From IMG/VR virus record IMGVR_UViG_3300010354_000006: DNA of 45,220 nucleotides. One strand, given 5' to 3'. The notes under the pieces are model-generated. The model was given only the letters and a program-made list of their open reading frames with translations, was not told the DNA's origin and made no database searches. Shown here piece by piece: positions 3,506-45,220 of the stretch; position 1 is the stretch's first letter; each line of letters opens with the position of its first letter. Origin of the DNA: a virus. A program made the position numbers and the translations under genes.

Positions 3506-3795
3506 AAAAAGTAAGAAAAGTTAATCTAGAAATCGGCTCAATAGAAAAGTATCAAAAAAACAATAAGCTACCTGATAATTTTTTGACGATTTTAATTGCT
3601 AGGTACAAAGCAGGAGAAATTAAACCTGTATACAAAAAAATTGAAAAACAAAACAGGAAGACTCACGGACTAACAGCTACTAACGATGAATGGTGTTTTC
3701 TAAAAATGGAAGCTCTTAGAAAAGGGGTTAAAATTGGGGGAGAGGGAGCTGCTGGAATCATTAGGGCTTTAATTAATGGGGATGCAATCGAATGA
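3502..3795 (+). CDS. Hypothetical protein (97 aa)
   Basis: ORF track; overlapping start/stop. Confidence 0.45.
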   Translation: MKKVRKVNLEIGSIEKYQKNNKLPDNFLTILIARYKAGEIKPVYKKIEKQNRKTHGLTATNDEWCFLKMEALRKGVKIGGEGAAGIIRALINGDAIE

Positions 3796-4004
3796 TAAAC
3801 AACGAAAAACAAGACATCATAGAATCGCTTAAATTGGTTCAAGCTATTAGCCTGAAAGCCGCATTAGATGGCGATTATAGAATAGTAGCGGGGATGGAAG
3901 TAATTAAAAATTGCTTGTATGAGTTGGGGTGCATTTTTGAAATTGAGGAAGTTGTAAACCGAAAATTAGCAATCGACAAGCTGGAGAGATGTTTTAAATT
4001 ATGA
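3792..4004 (+). CDS. Hypothetical protein (70 aa)
   Basis: ORF track; overlapping start/stop. Confidence 0.4.
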   Translation: MINNEKQDIIESLKLVQAISLKAALDGDYRIVAGMEVIKNCLYELGCIFEIEEVVNRKLAIDKLERCFKL

Positions 4005-4861
4005 AAAAAATAACAATACTAACTAGCTTACTTGCAGTAGGGCTTAATCAAGCTCAAGCTGCCGTATATCATTGGGACAATGGAAAGAATGCTTACTGGG
4101 CAGGCACTAAGCCAGTGCAGCTAGTGATTGATACTGAATACCCGCAAGAAGTCATCGACAGAGTTTTTGAAATTTTAGAGCCTTATCCGATTGTTTTAAA
4201 AGAAAGGAAAAATATTGATTTAGCTTACGTTCCTGCTGTCAATGAAATAGCCGTAGCTTACGCCAGTATTTACAACAACACAGGAGCTTCTTTTGTAAAC
4301 CCTGCTTACAGATTACCAGATGGAGGGCTTAATCGTGGCTTATGTGCCACTGGTACTGCTTCTAGCGTAGAGCGTTTAGCGTGGATCATTACTCACGAGA
4401 TATTTCACTCTATCGGGATAGATCACATTCAACCTTTTAGGGTAGGTGAAGGTTTAGCAAAACCAAGAGGCTTAATGACAAGTTTTAAACCAAACTTAGG
4501 CTTTCAGCATGACGATTTAAGGGCTTTATCTGAGACTTTAAAAGAAGAGTTTTTAGACGATACTGTAACCGTAAGTGGTACTATCACTCCATTAAAAGGC
4601 ATGGTACTAAACTTTGTTAATGTAGATAGTCCAAAAGACTCAGCTCAAATCGTACCTAGCTATTTTTTTGAAAACAAAACAGAGTATGAGATCAAGAGGC
4701 TAAAGAAAGGCAGGTACTACATAAATGTTACGCCCGTTAAAGGCAGAGCTGGGATTTTAAACTCATTTTCTAAGCCATCTACATACTCTAAGATTAGATA
4801 TTTTAGGGGAAAGAGAATAATAAACATTGATAAAGATAGGGTTTTAAACTTAGAGTTTTAA
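4001..4861 (+). CDS. Secreted metzincin-like zinc metalloprotease
   Basis: Signal peptide MKKITILTSLLAVGLNQAQA and exact HEXXHXXGXXH motif (HEIFHSIGIDH), with a possible Met-turn (GLMTSF) downstream. Confidence 0.6.
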   Translation: MKKITILTSLLAVGLNQAQAAVYHWDNGKNAYWAGTKPVQLVIDTEYPQEVIDRVFEILEPYPIVLKERKNIDLAYVPAVNEIAVAYASIYNNTGASFVNPAYRLPDGGLNRGLCATGTASSVERLAWIITHEIFHSIGIDHIQPFRVGEGLAKPRGLMTSFKPNLGFQHDDLRALSETLKEEFLDDTVTVSGTITPLKGMVLNFVNVDSPKDSAQIVPSYFFENKTEYEIKRLKKGRYYINVTPVKGRAGILNSFSKPSTYSKIRYFRGKRIINIDKDRVLNLEF

Positions 4862-4873
4862 TCAGAGGATTGA

Positions 4874-5053
4874 ATGAAATATAGAGTAGAGATAGACGGA
4901 TACACCAAAACAACTCAATATGCAATTGTCGAAGCAAAATCAAAAGAAGAAGCTATAACTATTTTCAATAAGGGCAAGTTAAATTATGAGTATGATTTTG
5001 AAGATTTTGAGATAGCACAACAAGCTGAACCAATCGCTAGCGAGGAAGAATAA
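4874..5053 (+). CDS. Small hypothetical protein (59 aa), below the ORF-track cutoff
   Basis: ATG at 4874 preceded by GAGGA RBS; stop overlaps next ATG. Confidence 0.3.
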   Translation: MKYRVEIDGYTKTTQYAIVEAKSKEEAITIFNKGKLNYEYDFEDFEIAQQAEPIASEEE

Positions 5054-5280
5054 TGACAGAAGATTTAATTGTGGGTAACTTCTACACATTTAAAAAACAG
5101 CAATTAGTTTACGCAGGCTACCAGAAAGACCCTTATTTTAACAACGATTGGTATAAATTCACAATCGCTAAGCCTATTGAGCTACCAGAACCTTTAGGCA
5201 GTTTAACCGAGATTATTTTGTGGAACAACGAGATAGAAGAATTAAGAAAACCAAATGAAAAAACCAAAGCCACCGATTAG
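5053..5280 (+). CDS. Hypothetical protein (75 aa)
   Basis: ORF track. Confidence 0.4.
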   Translation: MTEDLIVGNFYTFKKQQLVYAGYQKDPYFNNDWYKFTIAKPIELPEPLGSLTEIILWNNEIEELRKPNEKTKATD

Positions 5281-5449
5281 AACTTTAGTTCTTCAAACAG
5301 AAGAAGAATTAAACAAGATCAAGAAAATGTATCCTGAATCTGATTTTGTTAGGTGCATTAAATGGATAGAATTAAGGCTACCAGAGAAGGCTTCTTTAAT
5401 AATTAATGGTAAAAATTATCACCGCTTTAGATTGGAGAGCAAAAAATGA
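5255..5449 (+). CDS. Hypothetical protein (64 aa)
   Basis: ORF track; start uncertain. Confidence 0.35.
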   Translation: MKKPKPPIRTLVLQTEEELNKIKKMYPESDFVRCIKWIELRLPEKASLIINGKNYHRFRLESKK

Positions 5450-5799
5450 AAATTACATACCCAGATTACATCCCAAATTGGAGCGGCTCAAGAGGCAGAG
5501 CATACCCCTCACCAGAAGACATCGCAAGAACGAATCCGCAAGCTAAAGGCTTAAGTGATAAGCAAAGAAAACTTTTACAAAGGCATCATATTGATTTAGA
5601 CCGCATGAACGCAGACCCTAAAAACATACACCTGCTTGACCCTGCGACTCACGAAGCAGTACACCGCCAAGAAAGAGCTTTATCTTCTGCTTTAATTAAA
5701 GCTGGAATTGTCAAGTACGATAAGCAAAATCCACATTATTACATCGCACATCCTCAAGTGAGAAAAATTTTAGAAAAAATGTTTGTGGGGGGTAAATGA
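5446..5799 (+). CDS. Hypothetical protein with HNH-like His/Asn motif (possible nuclease)
   Basis: RHHIDLDRMNADPKNIHLLDPATHEAVH has HH...N...H...H spacing; no Cys zinc ligands, weak call. Confidence 0.35.
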   Translation: MKITYPDYIPNWSGSRGRAYPSPEDIARTNPQAKGLSDKQRKLLQRHHIDLDRMNADPKNIHLLDPATHEAVHRQERALSSALIKAGIVKYDKQNPHYYIAHPQVRKILEKMFVGGK

Positions 5800-6365
5800 T
5801 AATTGTAGGAATCGACCCAGGGATAAAAGGTGGAATAGCTATTATAAATAGCGAATCCCCGAACACGCCAGCAGTTTACCCTATGCCTATTAGGCAAGAA
5901 GAAACTAAAACAAAAAAGAAAGTTAAAGCCTTAACAAAAAAAGAAAAGCTCGCTAAAAAACAAGGTAAAACCATTTATAAAACTAAAAATATCATAGACT
6001 CTAAAGCTTTTTTTGACATCTTGTATGAAGTCATCATGACAACTAGAGATATTGATTTAGTTTTAATCGAGAAACCTTTTTATCTTGGCATAGAATCTAG
6101 GACTTCTACTGCTACTACTGCTGAAAATTACGGACGATTAAGGGGAATCATGGAGTCATGCAAGTTAGATGTTAAAACAGTTAGGCCGCAAGAATGGAAA
6201 AATTACTTCGATTTGCCTGCTGATAAAGGGGAAGCAATAGCTAAGGCTAAAGAGCTATTCCCCTTAGTGAATTTAAAAGCTTCTAATAGGTCAAGAACAG
6301 ACTCAGACGGCATGGCAGAAGCTTTGCTAATAGCAGAATATGGGAGAATTAAAAATGCTAATTGA
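5796..6365 (+). CDS. RuvC-like Holliday junction resolvase
   Basis: N-terminal IIVGIDPGIKGGIAII (RuvC GIDPG block), IEKPF acidic residue, C-terminal DSDGMAEALLIAEYG resembling the RuvC DAADALAIA catalytic block. Confidence 0.7.
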   Translation: MIIVGIDPGIKGGIAIINSESPNTPAVYPMPIRQEETKTKKKVKALTKKEKLAKKQGKTIYKTKNIIDSKAFFDILYEVIMTTRDIDLVLIEKPFYLGIESRTSTATTAENYGRLRGIMESCKLDVKTVRPQEWKNYFDLPADKGEAIAKAKELFPLVNLKASNRSRTDSDGMAEALLIAEYGRIKNAN

Positions 6366-9310: not shown

Positions 9311-9616
9311 TTACCTTTCTCTCTGTCTTTCTTCTTTTAAAAACTCTTTAAAATTATCCTTAAGCTCATTTAAAGCAGCAATAACCATGCGAAAATTCTC
9401 TTCAATTTTAATTGTTGATTTTTCTAAGCCTTTAATATCTTTGCCCTGTTCATCAGTCCTAACTTCTAAAGCTAAAATCTTTTTATCTAAAACTTTTAAT
9501 TGTGGCTCTATGACTAAGTTGTAAAAAATAATAAGTACAGTTAATTCACCACCAATGATTGAACCAACAAGCATTAACAATTCATAGGATTTAAAGATGT
9601 ACTCTGTTTCCGTCAT
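9311..9616 (-). CDS. Membrane-anchored coiled-coil protein (101 aa)
   Basis: N-terminal hydrophobic helix then charged helical region. Confidence 0.45.
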   Translation of the reverse strand: MTETEYIFKSYELLMLVGSIIGGELTVLIIFYNLVIEPQLKVLDKKILALEVRTDEQGKDIKGLEKSTIKIEENFRMVIAALNELKDNFKEFLKEERQRER

Positions 9617-10449
9617 TTTAATACTACAGTAACACCGATTTGCTCTTCTGCTTTACCCGATAAGAAAACTTTTAATAAACCGCCTTCAACTTTAACTAAA
9701 TAATTTAAATTCTCAGGATTAACAGGTAATGAAGCACCATTCGTGTTAGACTTTATTCTGTTTTCGCCTAAAAGATTTTGTATTAAGACTCTCAGCTCAG
9801 CATCAAAAAAAGTACCTTGAGACCCCATAGCTGTAATTTGAATTAAAGCTTTGTAGTTAGACTGCTTTAATTCAAATGCTGCTACTTGGGTAAGCTCGCT
9901 GCTAATTAAAATTGTTTCTTTTGTCGGATATTCAGCACCATCTTTACCCTTTTCGCCTTGCTCGCCCTTCTCCCCTTTCTCGCCCTTTAAATCCCCTAAA
10001 TTATTTTTCCATTCTTCAAATAAAGAAGCTAATTCTTTTTTCGCAAAATCATAATCAAATTCTGCATTTAAGCCATCTTTACCATTAATGCCATCTTTAC
10101 CATCTTTACCATTAATGCCATCTTTACCATTTTTGCCATTAACACCATTCTTGCCATCAAGACCATTCAAGCCATCTTTGCCATCAAGTCCGTTTAAACC
10201 ATCCTTGCCATCAAGTCCGTTTAAACCATCTTTGCCATCAGCTCCATTTAAGCCAGCTTCCCCTTGCTCGCCCTTGTCGCCTTTTTGACCCTTGAGCTTA
10301 TCTACTTTTTTCGCTAAAAGCTTTTCAACTTCTTGATTGAAAACGTCTAAAACCCTTTCTTTTAAAGGCTCTTTAAATTCTTCGCTAAATAGTTCACCTA
10401 TTTGAACTAGTCTGTTTTCTATTTTTGCTGCACCCGCTCCGCCTAACAT
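9613..10449 (-). CDS. Collagen-like repeat protein (Gly-X-Y), probable tail fibre
   Basis: Long run of G-X-Y triplets (GKDGLNGLDGKDGLNGLDGK...) encoded by tandem DNA repeats at about 10080-10260. Confidence 0.65.
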   Translation of the reverse strand: MLGGAGAAKIENRLVQIGELFSEEFKEPLKERVLDVFNQEVEKLLAKKVDKLKGQKGDKGEQGEAGLNGADGKDGLNGLDGKDGLNGLDGKDGLNGLDGKNGVNGKNGKDGINGKDGKDGINGKDGLNAEFDYDFAKKELASLFEEWKNNLGDLKGEKGEKGEQGEKGKDGAEYPTKETILISSELTQVAAFELKQSNYKALIQITAMGSQGTFFDAELRVLIQNLLGENRIKSNTNGASLPVNPENLNYLVKVEGGLLKVFLSGKAEEQIGVTVVLK

Positions 10450-12772: not shown

Positions 12773-13555
12773 ATGTCTTATAATAAGAACATGAGTTTAT
12801 CTAACCTGTTAGACAAGATAAAAAAAATCCCAGTTCTTAAGAAAAACGAAGAAGAAGAGTTGGCTTCTTGGTTTAATTCCAATGAATTAGCAAGACCAAT
12901 TTATGAAAAGATTTTAATTTATCATAACTTAAGATTGGCTAGGCATATTGCAAATAGATTTATAGACAGGGGTTATGAGCTAGAAGATTTAATTTCAGAA
13001 GCTGTTACAGGTTTAAAGCGTGCTGCTGAAAAGTTTAATCCAAAACTAGGCTATAGATTTAGCACTTACGCTGGGCAATGGATTAACCAACGAATCCAAA
13101 AGTTTATTCAAACTTCTTCAACGATTAAAATTCCCGTATTGAAATATTACGCAATTCAAGAGCTGCATAGCCTACTTAATGTTGAACCACTAGAGACTAT
13201 TAGAGAAAAATTAAAGCTTTCAAAAAATCAATTTAATAAATTATACCAAGCCTACTCAAGCCAATTAGTTGAGTCTATAGATGTACCTTTGAATGACCAT
13301 GAATTAATTAAAGAAAGTATCCCTTTTGCCTCAAAAGAATATGATGATCTTTCGGAAAATTTAGAATACTTCTTATCTCAAATCCCCAAAGATGAATACC
13401 CTATAGTCCTAAGTTATCTAAATCAAGAGTTTACTAAAAATAAACTATGCGAAATTTATAACTTAACCTTTATTGAATTAAATCAAATACTGAACCGCAA
13501 TGTAACCTTCTTAAAAGAATCTTTGCGAGGGGATTACGAAGCCTTAAGACTTTGA
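12773..13555 (+). CDS. Sigma-70 family RNA polymerase sigma factor
   Basis: Region 2 signature ...AAEKFNPKLGYRFSTYAGQWINQRIQKFI... (FSTYA.WWI.Q consensus) and a C-terminal helix-turn-helix-like segment. Confidence 0.75.
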   Translation: MSYNKNMSLSNLLDKIKKIPVLKKNEEEELASWFNSNELARPIYEKILIYHNLRLARHIANRFIDRGYELEDLISEAVTGLKRAAEKFNPKLGYRFSTYAGQWINQRIQKFIQTSSTIKIPVLKYYAIQELHSLLNVEPLETIREKLKLSKNQFNKLYQAYSSQLVESIDVPLNDHELIKESIPFASKEYDDLSENLEYFLSQIPKDEYPIVLSYLNQEFTKNKLCEIYNLTFIELNQILNRNVTFLKESLRGDYEALRL

Positions 13556-36598: not shown

Positions 36599-36817
36599 TT
36601 ACTTTGTTTTATCTTTTTCGTGCAAATGCCTAAGTGCTGTCATTAAAACATAATTTTGCATTTGCATTTCTATTGAAAGTTTATAAACAACTTCTTGTAT
36701 TGTTAATTCTGCTAGATTCGGATTAAATGGAGTATACTCTTCTAACTTCTTGTTTAATTTCTGCAATTCATTAATACAAAAAGGGATTACCCAAGCTTCT
36801 TCATCTTCTTTTCTCAT
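36599..36817 (-). CDS. Hypothetical protein (72 aa)
   Basis: ORF track. Confidence 0.35.
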   Translation of the reverse strand: MRKEDEEAWVIPFCINELQKLNKKLEEYTPFNPNLAELTIQEVVYKLSIEMQMQNYVLMTALRHLHEKDKTK

Positions 36818-37020
36818 TCTTTCTCCTCCAATTCCTCTACCTTCTCCAATAACCTCTTAAGCAAATACTCCCAAGTAACACCCTTAGTCTTGCCAAGCTT
36901 CGTTATCAGCTCTTCTGAAAATTCCCTGCTTATAGAAATTAAATACTTTTCTTGCTTAGGTTTCACTTTTAATCCCCTCTTGTTCATAAATACTAAAAGA
37001 GTAAGACTCACCAGACTCAA
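36814..37020 (-). CDS. Small hypothetical protein; likely start at internal Met (MNKRGLKV...)
   Basis: ORF track; overlaps next ORF. Confidence 0.3.
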   Translation of the reverse strand: MSLVSLTLLVFMNKRGLKVKPKQEKYLISISREFSEELITKLGKTKGVTWEYLLKRLLEKVEELEEKE

Positions 37021-37291
37021 AGCTAGAAGCTTTTAAAAACATTGGCTCATTGTAATACGGTGAACTAGGACGGATACGCTGGTCTATAAAAGTGGGGTTG
37101 CCGTCTTCTACACCAATAAACTTTAAATCCTCATACTCCATATACAACCCTTTACTAATAGGGTTATCAATTCGCACTATATACAATGCACCAATTTTAA
37201 GGTCATCTAGCTTCTTGATTCTTGCTAGATCAAATTCATTCACCATCTTCCACTGCCTTTTTGAAATTACGACCAAATACTCTGGCAACAT
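36956..37291 (-). CDS. Hypothetical protein (111 aa or shorter)
   Basis: ORF track; region has several overlapping frames. Confidence 0.3.
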   Translation of the reverse strand: MLPEYLVVISKRQWKMVNEFDLARIKKLDDLKIGALYIVRIDNPISKGLYMEYEDLKFIGVEDGNPTFIDQRIRPSSPYYNEPMFLKASSFESGESYSFSIYEQEGIKSET

Positions 37292-37466
37292 TATTTAAAT
37301 TGATTAATTCCTCAAATGCCCCAAGGTCTTCTCTAACTACAACCCAAGAAGGTGGGATTATGCCTACTACTTCCGTCCAATCAGTAGCGAAACTGGAATC
37401 AAACTGAAACCTATAACTACTACCAACAGTAAAAGTATCTGTTAAATTTCTTTCCATAATCAACAA
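37236..37466 (-). CDS. Hypothetical protein; track start is TTG, likelier ATG at 37455-37457
   Basis: ORF track; first gene of minus-strand block. Confidence 0.3.
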   Translation of the reverse strand: MLIMERNLTDTFTVGSSYRFQFDSSFATDWTEVVGIIPPSWVVVREDLGAFEELINLNNVARVFGRNFKKAVEDGE

Positions 37467-38195
37467 TATACCACGATATATAAAAATATACCACTGTTAA
37501 TTTAAATATATCTCAGCGGGACTTTATCCTTCTAGCTCTCACTAGCCTGCATTGAAAACTCTAGTCTTTCGGTTTAATCACATAGATTTTTATGTGGTTA
37601 GTTATTGCTTGTTTAAATCGGTTTAAATCAATTTCTTTTTATTCTTGGGATGATTATGGCTTTAATAAGGTTTTCTTTTAACCTGTGGCAGAATAAAGGG
37701 GTTTTGTGAAGTTTTCTAGTTGGTTGTTAGGTTGGTTTATTACATTGCTGAAATTTGAAATTTTTTATGTGTAGCGAGAGGGGATGCAGTGATAATTTAA
37801 AGGGGTGGCATGGGGTAAAGGATGTTACCCGTAAATACTTTTCTGCTTTTATTACTCTAGAATTACCCTTATACAGTGCCATATTCAAGATAACATTATA
37901 TTATCTTAAGTAAGAACGTGATTGTAGAGCCATTTCAGTATGTTGTTAAAGATAATATACAGAAATTAAGGGGTAGCTACCGAGTATTGGGGGGTATCTT
38001 ATAGTGATTAATGATTGATGACTGATGATCTCTCTCTTATATATTCTTTATCGCTTGCATGTGTTACCCTGCTCGACACATTAACATCATTTCTCATTCT
38101 AAACAAAAACGAGAAACGAATAAAACTCATTCTCAGAAAGCAACTATTCAATTTTACCTACCTACTAGTAGGTAAAAGTTATACCTAACAATTAA

Positions 38196-38288
38196 GCCTA
38201 AAGTGGACTATAGGGTTTAATTAATATAAAGTCTAAAGTGGACTATAGGGTTACAGTAGTAATAAAGCCTATAGTGGACTATAGGGTT
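38196..38288. repeat. Three direct copies of a 22-bp motif GYCTAWAGTGGACTATAGGGTT (38196-38217, 38231-38252, 38267-38288)
   Basis: Read directly; 35-36 bp periodicity; adjacent 12-bp palindrome CCTACTAGTAGG at 38161-38172. Confidence 0.85.
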
Positions 38289-38516
38289 ATAAAGGCTTTC
38301 TAATCAACATTCCTTACTTATCGGCGTAACGATTAAAAACAAGCGAGGCTAGTATTAGTATCTTTTTGTTGTTTTACTTATGACATAAGACAATAGAACA
38401 TTAAATATATTTAATATATCACACCATAACTATATAATCCCTTGAAACCTAGTCCAGTAGTGCATTTCAAGGATTTATAAGTTATTTGATTGATAAAAAA
38501 ATATTTAATAAAAGTG

Positions 38517-38544
38517 TTGCTTTCTTATGACATTATGGTATAAT
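38517..38544 (+). promoter_or_regulatory. Sigma70-like early promoter: -35 TTGCTT (38517-38522), 16-bp spacer, extended -10 TGGTATAAT (38536-38544)
   Basis: Hexamers read directly; ATG at 38551 is 6 nt after -10, implying a leaderless transcript. Confidence 0.5.
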
Positions 38545-38550
38545 AGAAGT

Positions 38551-38739
38551 ATGGAAAGAAAACAAATTGTTAGTCAAGAGTTTAGTCTAAGATTCATAGG
38601 CTTTAAAAACATAGTAGAAGCTAACTTAGCTATGTTTACTCAGTATCCAGATACTGATACTGGATACAATTTGTTGCACTCGTGCAACAAAAAAAACAAT
38701 ATAGAGCCATGTGAAGATGGCTTTATTTTTTATTGTTAA
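38551..38739 (+). CDS. Small early protein (62 aa), possibly leaderless
   Basis: In-frame ATG inside track ORF 38527..38739, positioned at predicted transcription start. Confidence 0.35.
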   Translation: MERKQIVSQEFSLRFIGFKNIVEANLAMFTQYPDTDTGYNLLHSCNKKNNIEPCEDGFIFYC

Positions 38740-38748
38740 TTAGACCAA

Positions 38749-38778
38749 GACCTAAGCAAGTCTTTAAACTGCTTAAGG
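38749..38778 (+). promoter_or_regulatory. Intercistronic element A copy 1 (imperfect palindrome overlapping RBS)
   Basis: GACCTAAGCAAGTCTTTAAACTGCTTAAGG; TAAGCA / TGCTTA inverted repeat. Confidence 0.6.
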
Positions 38779-38786
38779 AAAAAGAA

Positions 38787-38942
38787 ATGAAAAACAATCA
38801 ACTAATAGAAAAATACAATATCACAGCTAAGGATATAGCAGTAATCGAGGATCATCTTCATTATGGTTATGGTTACGAGTATTTAGAAGCTAGGTTCAGT
38901 TTCTCTGAGTTAGAGGTAATTCTAGACACTTGGAGCATTTAA
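38787..38942 (+). CDS. Small early protein (51 aa)
   Basis: ATG at 38787 after AAGGAAAAAG RBS; track ORF began at TTG 38733. Confidence 0.35.
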   Translation: MKNNQLIEKYNITAKDIAVIEDHLHYGYGYEYLEARFSFSELEVILDTWSI

Positions 38943-38952
38943 TTATTAGGAT

Positions 38953-38982
38953 GACCTGAGCAAGTCTTTAAACTGCTTAAGG
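38953..38982 (+). promoter_or_regulatory. Intercistronic element A copy 2
   Basis: GACCTGAGCAAGTCTTTAAACTGCTTAAGG. Confidence 0.6.
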
Positions 38983-38991
38983 AGTAAAGAA

Positions 38992-39225
38992 ATGAAAAAA
39001 TTTGACCACTTAAAAAACATTAAAAGCCTGCTAAACCAGCAGTTGAAAAAGCATGGGTTAAAACTACCTGTGCATGCTGAGCTGAAAGACATGGCTATTT
39101 TGTCTGATATCTTAGCAGGTAGGATTACAGAAATAGACTTAGCTTTTGCGATAGCAAAGATAGAGTCAAGAGCTGATAAGGCTTGTATAGCAGCTAGCAA
39201 AGTAACAGAAAGGGAGAGTAAGTAA
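38992..39225 (+). CDS. Hypothetical early protein (77 aa)
   Basis: ORF track. Confidence 0.4.
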   Translation: MKKFDHLKNIKSLLNQQLKKHGLKLPVHAELKDMAILSDILAGRITEIDLAFAIAKIESRADKACIAASKVTERESK

Positions 39226-39477: not shown

Positions 39478-39483
39478 ACCAAA

Positions 39484-39512
39484 GACCTAGCAAGTCTTAA
39501 AACTGCTTCAGG
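39484..39512 (+). promoter_or_regulatory. Intercistronic element A copy 3
   Basis: GACCTAGCAAGTCTTAAAACTGCTTCAGG. Confidence 0.55.
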
Positions 39513-39522
39513 AGATAAAAAA

Positions 39523-39936
39523 ATGACAATTAAAATACAAATCGATAAAAAAATATTAGAAGCTGATAGCTTGGCGGTATTAGCTTATAGTGTCGAGAAG
39601 GAAATTAACAAAATACTAGAAATTAAAGAAAGTAGTTACCTTGCAACTCTCTCAATTAAAAGCATGTTACAGGGCTTGCAAGTCTATTCTAATTATCATA
39701 AAAATCTTTCAGCTGATGATTATGAACATTATTGTAGCAATGGTACTTTTAAATTAAACCTACACGAGGAATTAGATGACCCAAAATTAGATTTTCCTCT
39801 GGTGGTCTCACGTTCCATAGATTTATGGCTACAAGGTACTAATGAACCTAAGTTAATAGTCTCTTTCAGAAATGACAATAACCAGCTAGTCATAGATGAT
39901 GAGAACTTGAATAAACTAGATTCATACTTTGCTTAA
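39523..39936 (+). CDS. Hypothetical early protein (137 aa)
   Basis: ORF track. Confidence 0.45.
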   Translation: MTIKIQIDKKILEADSLAVLAYSVEKEINKILEIKESSYLATLSIKSMLQGLQVYSNYHKNLSADDYEHYCSNGTFKLNLHEELDDPKLDFPLVVSRSIDLWLQGTNEPKLIVSFRNDNNQLVIDDENLNKLDSYFA

Positions 39937-40003
39937 AACTATCAGCTAACCGATTCTACACCATCTCAACGGCATGGTGTAGAACTGGTAAGCACCAGTT
40001 AAA
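39937..40003 (+). ncRNA. Intercistronic element B copy 1: conserved leader, 11-bp stem hairpin (39954-39964 / 39974-39984), second short hairpin, then RBS
   Basis: TTCTACACCAT / ATGGTGTAGAA perfect stem; ACTGGT-AAGC-ACCAGT second hairpin. Confidence 0.55.
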
Positions 40004-40023
40004 GAAAAAAGGAAAATAAAAAA

Positions 40024-40707: not shown

Positions 40708-40776
40708 AACTATCATCAAGCTAACCGCTTCTAGCATATCTAATAGCATATGCTGGAACTGGTTATCACCAGATAA
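40708..40776 (+). ncRNA. Intercistronic element B copy 2: same architecture, stem 40729-40739 / 40748-40758 with compensatory changes
   Basis: TTCTAGCATAT / ATATGCTGGAA (one G-U wobble); CTGGT-TATC-ACCAG. Confidence 0.55.
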
Positions 40777-40791
40777 AGGAAAAAGGAAAAA

Positions 40792-41536: not shown

Positions 41537-41605
41537 AACTATCATCAAGCTAACCGATTCTAGCACTTACTAATCCAAGTGCTGGAACTGGTTATCACCA
41601 GATAT
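41537..41605 (+). ncRNA. Intercistronic element B copy 3: stem 41558-41568 / 41577-41587 with compensatory changes
   Basis: TTCTAGCACTT / AAGTGCTGGAA (one G-U wobble); CTGGT-TATC-ACCAG. Confidence 0.55.
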
Positions 41606-41618
41606 AGGAAAAAAACAA

Positions 41619-42147: not shown

Positions 42148-42293
42148 TGGAATAAAGTTTTAATTCCCTCGAATAAGGGGGAATTAAAAGCAGTCAAGTA
42201 ATCCTTGACAGCTCAACTATTCGAGATTATCGAATACTTGGATAATCAAGCCTAGAGCTACTATCATTAGGTTGAGTAATCTAGAGTAAATAG

Positions 42294-42577
42294 TTTTCCG
42301 TCTTTTCCGTCATATCTTTTTACTTTCCGTCAAAATGACGAAAGCTATAATACAAGCCTAGTCCGCCTATCCAGTCTTTTCCGTCTTTTCCGTCATTTCC
42401 GTAATGAATAAGTGAAGTTATAAATAATAATATATATATACATATTGATTAATTATTTCATTTATTTATTTTTCTAGACGAAAATGACGAAATGACGGAA
42501 AAACTCTCGATAAGTATACCTAGTCTATATTATAGAGTCCGTCAAACTATGACGGAAAACACTCAAATGACGGAAAA
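42294..42577. promoter_or_regulatory. Putative origin of replication: TTTTCCGTC iterons (42294-42302, 42303-42311, 42323-42331, 42377-42385, 42386-42394), AT-rich core (42411-42476), inverted GACGGAAAA iterons (42494-42502, 42551-42559, 42569-42577)
   Basis: Read directly; lies in an 800-bp ORF-free region upstream of the helicase gene. Confidence 0.6.
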
Positions 42578-42727
42578 CTAGAAACAGATGAGCAAGCTAG
42601 TCAAATATCCTGCAAGCTCGACAGAGCAGCTCGTAAGAGCGGGGGTATTTAAGTTGCGGCTCAACATAAAAACAAATTAAACTAATTACTAAGTTACTTG
42701 TTAGATAAATCTGATATATATATAAGT

Positions 42728-42853
42728 ATGAAGAAATCGGGATTAAATATCCACCTGGAAACAATAGAAAAGCTGAAAGAGTTTAAACCAAGTGGTGTAA
42801 CTTGGGATTATTTTTTATTGGAGTTGCTGAAAGCTTGGGTAGCTAAAGGTTAA
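42728..42853 (+). CDS. Small ORF (41 aa), possible ribbon-helix-helix-like regulator between origin and helicase
   Basis: ATG to TAA read directly; no clear RBS. Confidence 0.25.
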   Translation: MKKSGLNIHLETIEKLKEFKPSGVTWDYFLLELLKAWVAKG

Positions 42854-42857
42854 TCGA

Positions 42858-44600
42858 ATGAAAAATGAACAAGCTTTATTGGGTGCTATTCTTCAGCACG
42901 CAGAATGTAAGTATTTAATCTATGAATTAAAAGCTGATTATTTTTCAAATGACGATAATCGCAAAGTCTTTTTAGCTATGCTGGCATTGCATAATGCTAA
43001 TGAACCTATAGAAATATTCACAGTTAAAAGCAAGGTAGAAGAACTAAATTATTCTGATCTGCTTGGATACATTGAACTATTAAGAGACGTAGCAGATATT
43101 CCATCTAATGTTAGATTCACTCTTAAAAGAATTTTCAAGGCATATAAAGCTAAAGAAGAAAAAAGAATTAAAAGCGAAATAAAATTTCACCAAGATGATT
43201 TACCCAAAGTTCAATCCTTAATTCAAGAGTTTAATGAGCTTAACAAATTAATCGCATTAGACGAAATTAAATTACTCGGTAAAAACAAGGAATCCCAAGC
43301 TCAATTTTGTTTGCAGGATATACTGCCATCACCATTATATGCCTATCTATATGGCATTTCCTCAGTTCCATACAAAGACTTCCCAGTAGAAGCAGCATTC
43401 AGTTTATTTCTTTCCATAGTGGGCAGTCTAGCGGGTACTAAATTCACTATTTCACACCGAAGACACAAAGAACATGCTTTTTGGTGGTCTATGGTGGGTT
43501 TACCCGTAGGATCAGGCAAAACACCTATCTTAAATAACCTAATGAAGCCCTTAACAGTCTTGCAGTACGAAGCTTTAGAAGTTTATAAACAGCAGCTTAA
43601 AGAATTTCAAGAAGTTAAAAAGAAAAAGAAAAAAGATACTTCTCTTGAGGAATTTCAAGAGGAATTACCAGAACCTAAAAGAAAAAGATTTTATTTATCT
43701 GATTCAACAATGGAGACTACATTGAAAGCTCACTCAGATAACCCTAATGGGCTTTTATGGGTCAAGGATGAGCTTAAAGGTCTCTTTAATTCTCTTGGTG
43801 CTTATAAGGGTGGACGGGGAGAAGATAAAGAAACATTACTGTCACTAGGTGCAGGTACTTTTATTTCAGTAGCTAGAAAAGAAACAGATATTGAACTCGT
43901 CAAATCGGCTATTAGCCTCACTGGTGGGATTCAACCTCAAGTATTAAAAGATTTATATTCCAAAGATGGAGATAAAGATAACGGCTTATGGCAGAGATTC
44001 GCCTATATTATCCACGAAACAGTATCAAGAGAAAAAAACCCAGACGATGTAGTCTTAAATGATTCGATATTAACTAAGCTCTATTCCCATATTATTAGCT
44101 CAGAGGGTGCTAGCTTAGTCTTTGCTGATTATGATTATGTCGAATGGGTATCAGATTATTTTAATGAAGAGATAGATAAAGCTCCAACACCAGCAATGCA
44201 AGCATATTACACTAAATGCTTTGGGTTTTTCTTAAGGCTTTCTATTTTGTTGCATATTCTTGATTCGCACTTCTCTTATCTGTCTTACGATAGACCAGTT
44301 AGCAGAACTACCAGCGAAAATGCTTTTTCCTTAATTGTGGCTTACATTTCCCATGCTGAAAAACTATTTTATGTTAAAACCATCAAAAGCAAAGATCAAC
44401 AATTTATCAATAAAATTCTTGATAAGCCTTTAGCTAAAAGAACAATTAATGAAATCGCTAAAACTATTACTCAACGTGTTGATAAACCTTCTGATTATGC
44501 CCGCTATCTATTTGAGCTTATGCAAGAAGCAGGCTTAGGTACTATCAACAAAACCAACGGCAAAAACTGGCAATTCGCTTTAAAGGGAGAAACAATATGA
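42858..44600 (+). CDS. Replicative helicase / replication initiator with DnaB-like N-terminal domain and Walker A P-loop
   Basis: N-terminus NEQALLGAILQHAE...FSNDDNRKVFLAML...EPIEIFTV matches DnaB N-terminal pattern; P-loop VGLPVGSGKTPIL. Confidence 0.55.
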   Translation: MKNEQALLGAILQHAECKYLIYELKADYFSNDDNRKVFLAMLALHNANEPIEIFTVKSKVEELNYSDLLGYIELLRDVADIPSNVRFTLKRIFKAYKAKEEKRIKSEIKFHQDDLPKVQSLIQEFNELNKLIALDEIKLLGKNKESQAQFCLQDILPSPLYAYLYGISSVPYKDFPVEAAFSLFLSIVGSLAGTKFTISHRRHKEHAFWWSMVGLPVGSGKTPILNNLMKPLTVLQYEALEVYKQQLKEFQEVKKKKKKDTSLEEFQEELPEPKRKRFYLSDSTMETTLKAHSDNPNGLLWVKDELKGLFNSLGAYKGGRGEDKETLLSLGAGTFISVARKETDIELVKSAISLTGGIQPQVLKDLYSKDGDKDNGLWQRFAYIIHETVSREKNPDDVVLNDSILTKLYSHIISSEGASLVFADYDYVEWVSDYFNEEIDKAPTPAMQAYYTKCFGFFLRLSILLHILDSHFSYLSYDRPVSRTTSENAFSLIVAYISHAEKLFYVKTIKSKDQQFINKILDKPLAKRTINEIAKTITQRVDKPSDYARYLFELMQEAGLGTINKTNGKNWQFALKGETI

Positions 44601-45081: not shown

Positions 45082-45186
45082 ATGAACGAACTAGAAGAAT
45101 TAAAAACAGTGCAATTAATTATTAATTTTGTCGTAGTAATAGCTATCCTAGCTGTAGCCGTAACAGTTGGGAGGTACTTGGGATGA
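45082..45186 (+). CDS. Small membrane peptide (34 aa, single predicted TM helix); stop overlaps ATG of the 65-aa ORF (equivalent to 86..283)
   Basis: AAGGAAAAG RBS; hydrophobic core IINFVVVIAILAVAVTV. Confidence 0.3.
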   Translation: MNELEELKTVQLIINFVVVIAILAVAVTVGRYLG

Positions 45187-45220
45187 GAGAATTAGACCGC
45201 CAAAAATGGCTTCCAGTGGA
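45098..45220. repeat. Second copy of the 123-bp terminal direct repeat
   Basis: Exact match to 1-123. Confidence 0.9.

Follow-up and report, generated by a model that had tools for sequence, protein, structure and literature searches.

What do three 22-mers do in the gap between the divergent late and early operons of a phage genome? The genome in question is IMG/VR virus record IMGVR_UViG_3300010354_000006, and the whole stretch of 45,220 nucleotides is referred to here as the window. Judged from their sequence, the three repeats are probably, though far from certainly, tandem operator sites for a sequence-specific and probably dimeric DNA-binding regulator. Symmetric half-sites with a free centre, uniqueness in the genome, stronger conservation of the 22-mer than of the spacers, and the swapping of the array as a cassette together with its placement on promoters elsewhere fit operators that are read by a dimer. 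The relatives compared with the window comprise fifteen viral contigs with a 58-100% identical terminase and further contigs obtained from DNA patterns and exact-protein look-ups; contigs that need to be told apart are given L numbers.

Three palindromic sites at one locus

The three 22-mers are present in the window as originally noted, at 38196-38217, 38231-38252 and 38267-38288 with spacings of 35 and 36 bp, and all of them point toward the early genes. Their symmetry had been missed: every 22-mer lies in a 24-bp palindrome, AAsyCTAwAG-N4-CTATAGGGTT, which is called here the A-type site.

38194-38217, no strand assigned: A-type site 1, AAGCCTAAAG-TGGA-CTATAGGGTT, located by repeat and motif search
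38229-38252, no strand assigned: A-type site 2, AAGTCTAAAG-TGGA-CTATAGGGTT, located by repeat and motif search
38265-38288, no strand assigned: A-type site 3, AAGCCTATAG-TGGA-CTATAGGGTT, the only copy with perfect symmetry

The 14-nt core AGTGGACTATAGGG has exactly three exact copies in the whole 45-kb window, all at the control-region locus, and none of the shuffled sequences equalled the observed count of the core at up to three mismatches. A literature search for the motif strings returned nothing relevant.

The copies stand head to tail in a 35-36-nt unit, as they would if a 35-nt unit had recently been duplicated in tandem within a fast-evolving gap. The region is highly mosaic and one relative is without any array, which would also fit an array that has no function. 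However, the 22-mer part of the 35-nt unit has been retained at 20-21/22 identity among the copies while the spacers have diverged, the palindrome recurs in other genomic contexts and lineages, and all relatives but one have some array at the same position. A functionless duplication is regarded as unlikely.

Folding of copies 1-3 as single-stranded DNA gives -2.8, -1.9 and -5.9 kcal/mol, respectively, and only copy 3 differs from shuffled sequence. Because only copy 3 makes a stable hairpin, the common property of the three copies is their sequence and not a structure. A non-coding RNA formed by the repeats, which had been suggested earlier, finds no support here: two of the three copies fold poorly as hairpins, and a search of 36900-39100 against Rfam 15 gave one chance-level match at E<=1, which lies outside the gap (38565-38661, E 0.57). 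The 22-mers could also act as RNA in the form of weak tandem minus-strand terminators or hairpins that shield the structural operon from transcription running leftward from near 38421. A lenient terminator scan flags copy 3 alone, on the minus strand, as CCTATAGTCCACTATAGG followed by CTTTATTACT; the minus strand has an extended -10 box, TGATATATT, at 38421-38413; and copies of the palindrome in bacterial genomes are mostly terminator hairpins with an A-run and a T-run. However, copies 1 and 2, which have a stem mismatch, are no more stable than shuffled sequence when folded, the AT-rich stems contain only three G-C pairs, the U tracts are poor, and the arrays that replace the A-type sites in relatives (B, C and D types, below) are not terminator hairpins. 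Such a role in RNA is highly improbable.

Array exchange and a second phage lineage

The position of the array is constant among the relatives, to the right of the junction ACAAATAAGCCTAA and to the left of an AT-rich stretch and the early promoter, and the motif that fills this position varies.

Window and L003: three A-type palindromes and one B-type site
L002: three B-type copies (TTGCTTATCGGC) replacing the three A-type sites, four B-type copies in total
L007: four B-type copies
L020 and L023: six B-type copies
L143, L144, L177 and L179: two TGACAAA-N9-TTTGTCA dyads (C type) and one or two A-like sites
L169 and L175: two to eight ATCAGrGTAAT units (D type)
L178: another array type
L005: no array

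The swap in L002 has the same flanks as the array of the window, namely ACAAATAAGCCTAA on the left and a B-type site with GATTAAAA on the right. The original prediction took absence of the repeats from relatives as the finding that would speak against it, and the relatives are divided in this respect: the motif varies and is absent in some of them, and the array position is kept, as are the A-type sites in L003, the closest relative. The consensus AAsyCTAwAG-N4-CTATAGrsTT is found in the window, L003, L014, L177/L179 and the second lineage described below. There are at least ten independent copies of the symmetric consensus in relatives, in which the central four nucleotides vary (TGGA, TCCA, CTGA, TTCA and CTAA). 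Conserved half-sites around a variable centre are the pattern expected of two half-sites read by a dimer. The region is built of exchangeable cassettes, and the other motifs of related phages are presumably matched to other regulators. A metagenome scan with a core pattern yielded only four loci, two of them new. A viral-contig scan with the loose pattern CTTATCGGC-N15-45-CTTATCGGC was discarded; its roughly 120 loci are unrelated, and all are coding tandem repeats.

The B-type motif that replaces the A-type sites in L002 has a single copy in the window, which had been missed.

38314-38326, plus strand: single B-type site TTACTTATCGGCG, the same motif that builds 4-6-copy arrays in relatives

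In every B-type copy of the window, L002, L007, L020, L023 and L164, the reverse complement reads GCCGATAA, the -10 consensus of sigma-28 (FliA). The corresponding -35 element, TAAA 15 nt upstream, is at the right distance in only a minority of the copies. In the 25-26-bp arrays of TTATCGGCT, the stretch about 15 nt upstream of a copy reads TAAA in one case and AAAA in another, supplied each time by the preceding copy. A sigma-28 promoter was rejected as an explanation of the B motif: the -35 is inconsistent, the top-scoring NCBIfam models of the sigma factor encoded by the phage are of the RpoS/RpoD type, every one below cut-off, and there is no FliA model among the matches listed (25 of 41). 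The match of the B motif to the sigma-28 -10 consensus is an unexplained coincidence.

Array exchange also bears on packaging, another role that had been proposed for the gap. The 22-mers would then be a recognition site (pac or cosB-like) for the small terminase. The region does lie upstream of the packaging genes, a 295-aa protein encoded beside the large terminase has a helix-turn-helix (HTH)-like segment, and cosB of phage lambda has three repeated binding sites. However, this putative small terminase is 86-99% identical among relatives that have different arrays or none. Furthermore, the second lineage has unrelated packaging genes and carries the same palindrome at its tail-gene promoters, and the 123-nt overlap between the window ends lies elsewhere and looks like circular assembly. 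A packaging site is extremely unlikely.

A pattern scan found the A-type palindrome in thirteen viral contigs of a second podovirus lineage. The terminase, portal, scaffold, capsid and tail-tube genes of this lineage have no similarity to those of the window phage, and only one small protein is common to the two. With its flanks, the motif is here a symmetric 24-mer, AAsyCTATAG-N4-CTATAGrsTT. Between the capsid-gene terminator and the tail-tube gene stand two A-type palindromes. The proximal palindrome has its centre near -30.5, over the -35 position, with 10 nt between its end and a TATAAT box; another 6 nt separate this -10 box from the ATG of the tail-tube gene. A third palindrome stands in the same arrangement in front of the tail-fibre gene, and the ATG follows the -10 box by 6-7 nt at each promoter. 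The divergent control region of the second lineage has the left block, part of the core (both described below), the TTATCGGCT repeats, one A-type palindrome and the early-promoter type of L143 in common with the window group.

Such placement recalls the promoters of phage RNA polymerases, either of the T7 type or of the N4 type, in which a hairpin is read by a virion-borne polymerase. The core ACTATAGGG resembles CACTATAGGG of T7-group promoters, whose consensus from -8 to +2 in T7, T3, SP6 and K11 resembles (T/C/G)(C/G)ACTATAG(G/A). T7 phiOL and three early promoters of N4 sit upstream of early genes, toward which all three copies of the window are oriented, and in the second lineage the motif lies after the capsid-gene terminator and before the tail-fibre gene, as T7 promoters do. 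However, no single-subunit polymerase was found with Pfam, PHROG or PDB, and no A/B/C polymerase motif is seen in the 1871-aa protein or elsewhere in the phage, which encodes a sigma-70-family factor instead. The motif is symmetric including its flanks, unlike the asymmetric T7-type consensus of about 23 bp, and it is confined to one locus rather than standing before many genes. Two of the three hairpins are unstable, which is at odds with the N4 type, and the TATAAT box and the ATG at +7 at a fixed distance in the second lineage fit the host polymerase. A phage polymerase promoter is again highly unlikely.

Operator sites are best weighed against the observations that do not favour them. The original prediction combined cooperative binding of a regulator, or an architectural array, with a regular helical-phase spacing of the 22-mers. 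The first part holds insofar as the 22-mers behave like protein-binding sites, being palindromic, unique to the locus, kept in L003, swapped in situ elsewhere and present on second-lineage promoters. The helical phasing does not hold: spacings of 35-36 bp correspond to 3.33-3.43 turns, so that adjacent 22-mers face different sides and are out of phase, and the arrays of relatives range from 26 to 95 bp in spacing. Several further points weigh against operators. No -10 element lies at the second-lineage distance on either side of any copy in the window. The strong early promoter is about 230-350 bp downstream of the A-type sites, and the leftward promoter is over 700 bp away from them. L005 has no array, so the array is not essential. 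The conservation statistics are weak, and the relatives are few and closely related. Finally, the early proteins have no Pfam or PHROG assignment and no HTH or other DNA-binding domain was found among them, and none of the early-protein families follows the presence of A-type sites in a comparison of 14 loci, in which the early regions were incompletely sampled.

Individual early proteins fare no better as the regulator. The 137-aa protein (39523-39936) was rejected on the ground that L175 has the protein without A-type sites, the window shares the 87-aa and 44-aa proteins with L143/L144 only, and the 111-aa protein, also found in L164, is absent from L003, which has A-type sites. It is possible that a host factor binds the sites. 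In 185,579 species genomes the tandem A-type pattern has no match, and the single palindrome gives 27 scattered hits, against a rough chance estimate of about 17, in unrelated taxa and mostly at ordinary terminator hairpins. One hit, L200 (CAYRVM010000017.1), is a 13.9-kb contig binned in an uncultured Oscillospiraceae metagenome-assembled genome and is 90-97% identical to the early regions of L172 and L175. Mis-binning of a phage contig is more likely here than a genuine indication of the host. A bolder and improbable idea is that the promoter-less palindromes form a bank of high-affinity sites for the regulator of the tail-gene promoters of the second lineage, taken as co-circulating, and this regulator would be shared or titrated as by a DNA decoy in phage competition; the array position would then be a plug-in slot at which operator cassettes are swapped among phages irrespective of the genes they carry.

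Control region and predicted edge promoters

The gap had been described as a non-coding divergent control region, and this description holds. It separates a leftward packaging/structural operon from a rightward early operon, and within 37467-38526 the open reading frames (ORFs) reach at most 57 aa, so that none attains 60 aa. The region is considered non-coding because relatives differ by 1-2-nt indels within its conserved part. A small ORF of 48 codons at 37767-37913 was dismissed as a gene, since L023 and L020 have a frameshift in it and L023 has also lost the start codon. The right limit of the region is probably 38550 rather than 38526: the predicted early promoter includes the ATG at 38527, and its -10 box is followed at a distance of 6 nt by the ATG at 38551. 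The following features accompany the A-type and B-type sites.

37462-37580, no strand assigned: left block upstream of the leftward promoter, including GGCGGGACTTTAT and CTAGC-N5-CTAGC; near-invariant in seven relatives and also present in L164
37465-37473, minus strand: proximal extended -10 box TGGTATATT of the predicted leftward packaging/structural promoter, the reverse complement of the first ATATACCAC; present in all relatives aligned
37485-37493, minus strand: distal duplicate extended -10 box (second ATATACCAC copy); degenerate or absent in L143, L020 and L164
37598-38011, no strand assigned: non-coding core; 75-90% identity in eight relatives, with 1-2-nt indels
37611-37630, no strand assigned: tandem of two GGTTTAAATC, with two TTTAAA hexamers 10 bp apart
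38152-38177, no strand assigned: inverted repeat TTTTACCTAC-N6-GTAGGTAAAA with 10-nt arms, of which the 12-bp palindrome is the centre
38366-38398, plus strand: partial duplicate of the early promoter sequence, TTGTTT..TTATGACAT..GACAAT, found as a repeat family; conserved in L002, L003 and L007
38517-38553, plus strand: predicted early promoter TTGCTT-N16-TGGTATAAT, with -35 TTGCTT (38517-38522) and extended -10 TGGTATAAT (38536-38544)

The promoters at the two edges are apparently of the sigma-70 type, as far as their boxes tell, and give leaderless first genes. On the left, both copies of ATATACCAC reported earlier are present, at 37466-37474 and 37486-37494, the first of them beginning one base to the left of its earlier placement. 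The proximal TGGTATATT is followed after 7 nt by the ATG (37457-37455) of the first leftward ORF, and the degeneration or absence of the distal copy in L143, L020 and L164 makes that copy probably dispensable. On the right, the early -10 box is followed after 6 nt by the ATG at 38551, and boxes of the form TGnTAnnAT lie at the equivalent place in relatives with different early genes. The partial duplicate at 38366-38398 is a possible weak rightward promoter. The first leftward ORF and the first early ORF both start with ATGGAAAGAAA, and several leaderless-type starts open with ATGGAAA(G/A)GAAA. The order of a -10 box, 6-7 nt and an ATG is also found in a 233-bp insertion of L002, L003 and L008, in the early promoters of relatives and in two late promoters of the second lineage; with plain or extended -10 boxes it lies at 37455-37473 and 38536-38553 of the window, at 940-960 of L002, and at 2331-2362 and 13746-13778 of L154. 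The form TATAAT-N6/7-ATG suggests that leaderless operon-first genes are routine in this virus-host system.

The proposed operator array lies within a mosaic region of transcription control that has a leftward promoter with an extended -10 on one side and a rightward promoter with a -35 and an extended -10 on the other. A protein would bind the 22-mers, and its binding would modulate early and/or late transcription in the window phage, possibly through cooperative occupancy, looping to the promoters or blocking of transcription that crosses the region. Because there is no -10 element at a matching distance, the array would have to affect the early promoter from upstream over a distance of 230-350 bp, or influence region-crossing transcription, which is a conjecture.

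The left part of the gap is better conserved than its mosaic surroundings, with 75-94% identity over 37452-38011 in eight relatives despite mosaic small genes on either side. The core holds a conserved sigma-70-like minus-strand promoter, TTAACA-17-TACAAT (37949-37921), beside a hairpin, AAGATAA-N7-TTATCTT, and this promoter-plus-hairpin piece is inverted in L164. Consensus folding of the core at 37740-38010, which does not include the repeats, gave weak folds on both strands, with covariation terms close to zero. A small number of G-U-compatible changes point to the plus strand at one hairpin and to the minus strand at a second. The tandem GGTTTAAATC was found as reported, at 37611-37630, and is retained as GTTTAAAT-N2-TTTAAAT in relatives and L164. 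It lies near the junction at which the 233-bp insertion is carried by L002 (927-1160), L003 and L008, the insertion site being between 37580 and 37598 of the window. The insertion has its own TGGTATAGT box and a 70-aa membrane-like ORF with a hydrophobic segment, and it resembles a small moron cassette.

The perfect 12-bp palindrome CCTACTAGTAGG had been singled out as well. It is present at 38161-38172, but it is not a notable feature: such palindromes occur at chance frequency (15 in the window versus 17.1 +/- 4.0 in shuffles), and single substitutions break it in L002 and L003. The surrounding inverted repeat is of a rarer kind, with three of this type in the window versus 0.9 expected. Other relatives have two to three direct TATAAGTAA repeats in place of the inverted repeat at 38152-38177.

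Genome setting and known systems

The window begins and ends with the same 123 bases (1-123 = 45098-45220), which indicates that it represents one circularly assembled phage genome of about 45.1 kb. A matching IMG/VR contig of 42,747 bp is without 3559-5908 of the window. On the minus strand, from 37466 down to about 8743, lie small genes, the 295-aa protein with the HTH-like segment, the large terminase, a portal/adaptor-like protein and further structural genes; in a relative, a 216-230-aa protein from the leftward packaging/structural block has an SU10-type adaptor domain. The plus strand carries, from 38551 across the window junction to 8477, unassignable small ORFs, a DnaB_N/DUF3987 helicase, Gp157/Gam-like and ERF proteins, a lysozyme and an M15 peptidase. 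Three further features deserve mention.

12773-13555, plus strand: gene for the 260-aa sigma-70-family factor, in opposite orientation within the structural gene block
9613-10449, minus strand: probable fibre protein of 278 aa, encoded distally in the structural block and containing collagen triple-helix repeats (Pfam E 1e-14)
42290-42580, no strand assigned: candidate replication origin, with seven direct TTTTCCGTC (42294-42408) and four to five inverted GACGGAAAA (42332-42578), in 9-bp units

No integrase, repressor, tRNA or tmRNA was seen in the phage genome, and the phage looks lytic. Comparison with 50,697 deposited phage genomes gave no homologue of the capsid protein and only distant matches for the terminase, and a near-identity DNA search of deposited phages gave no match to the control region.

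The candidate origin bears on a further explanation of the 22-mers, as replication-origin iterons that a phage initiator would bind beside the AT-rich stretch upstream of the early promoter. The three direct copies of about 22 bp do adjoin a 28%-GC stretch, the array motif differs among relatives with different replication genes, and lactococcal phage c2 is one example of an origin located in a divergent early/late gap. However, 42290-42580 has a far more origin-like structure. An AT-rich palindrome (42403-42470) lies amid its iterons, and it is directly upstream of a ribbon-helix-helix-like ORF of about 41 aa (42728-42853) and the helicase (42858-44600). L169, whose helicase is 56% identical, has the same layout with TTTTCCGCC iterons, so the helicase-linked, co-varying units are those of 42290-42580 and not the 22-mers. 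In addition, L172 and L173 share an array despite different ribbon-helix-helix N-termini, and the A-type palindrome on late-gene promoters of the second lineage is not expected of iterons. An origin at the 22-mers is very unlikely.

Other small elements were recorded in the window and its relatives. The ribbon-helix-helix-like motif of the 42728-42853 ORF, ..GVTW(D/E)Y(F/L)L..LL.., is common to a second small ORF on the minus strand at 36814-37020, with weak Pfam support, and also forms the N-terminus of 194-282-aa proteins at the helicase position in L023, L143, L168, L172 and L173. An intergenic element of about 85 nt occurs three times among the early genes (39937-40023, 40708-40791 and 41537-41618). 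It consists of AACTATCA..GCTAACCG.TTCTA, a hairpin and then GGAACTGGTTATCACCAG; its first hairpin varies in sequence among the copies with pairing retained, and it may be an RNA processing or stability element. GACCTAAGCAAGTCTTTAAACTGCTTAAGGAG stands three times (38745-38775, 38950-38985 and 39483-39515) directly upstream of early start codons, with the ribosome-binding site included, and is present in L005 and L023 too. An extended -10 box TGGTATAAT lies antisense inside the sigma-factor gene, at 13248. Many independent assemblies end in or at the edge of the control region (window-equivalent 37500-38550, many at 38300-38550): L002, L003, L007, L008, L014, L149-L153, L174 and L177-L181. These contig ends could be explained equally well by arrays and early genes that vary between strains and by physical ends of the genome.

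Operators in a divergent early/late gap have parallels in several known systems. The central control region of phi29, with p4 sites between the early promoters A2b/A2c and the late promoter A3, is likewise non-coding, lies between divergent early and late operons and carries several inverted-repeat sites, which serve a small phage regulator that sets the early/late balance. The p4 protein acts where the -35 is poor, and the second-lineage site overlaps the -35 position of a promoter without a -35 box. However, the phi29 region measures about 220 bp with its sites beside the promoters, whereas in the window the gap is 1.06 kb long and 230-350 bp separate the sites from the nearest strong promoter; a gene for a p4-like or other regulator was not found in the window, and the site sequences are unrelated. 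The OR1-3 and OL1-3 operators of lambdoid phages are likewise three adjacent palindromes whose sequence is swapped as a cassette between fixed flanks, as three A-type sites are for three B-type copies in L002. The lambda operators, however, measure 17 bp, are spaced 23-24 bp apart, overlap promoters and have adjoining repressor genes; the sites of the window are spaced 35-36 bp apart without promoter overlap, and neither an integrase nor a repressor was detected there. The MotA box of T4, centred at -30, and the Mor and C dyads of Mu resemble the second-lineage palindrome, which is near -30.5 of a promoter with a good TATAAT and no -35. This likeness holds for the second lineage only, not for the three copies of the window; moreover, MotA reads its asymmetric 9-bp box as a monomer, and no MotA/AsiA or Mor/C homologue was found in the phage. 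The lambda origin and the origin and crr of P4 also have several units of about 20 bp beside an AT-rich stretch, with a specificity that varies among relatives, but the window has the better, helicase-linked iteron origin elsewhere, and A-type sites are on second-lineage promoters as well.

Two things are out of the ordinary: operator cassettes are exchanged at a slot that stays fixed, and two structurally unrelated lineages have one palindrome and a large part of the control region in common. Most likely the array is an ordinary kind of element in an unusually modular form. Current concepts are unchanged by it, and it offers a well-delimited case of modular phage regulation, in which non-coding control modules and binding-site cassettes would move among phages independently of structural genes. 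The 24-bp palindrome (AAGCCTATAGTGGACTATAGGGTT) would be a defined bait for a regulator common to two phage lineages. If the operator reading is true, it would provide a first regulatory map for this uncultured, sigma-factor-encoding podovirus group.

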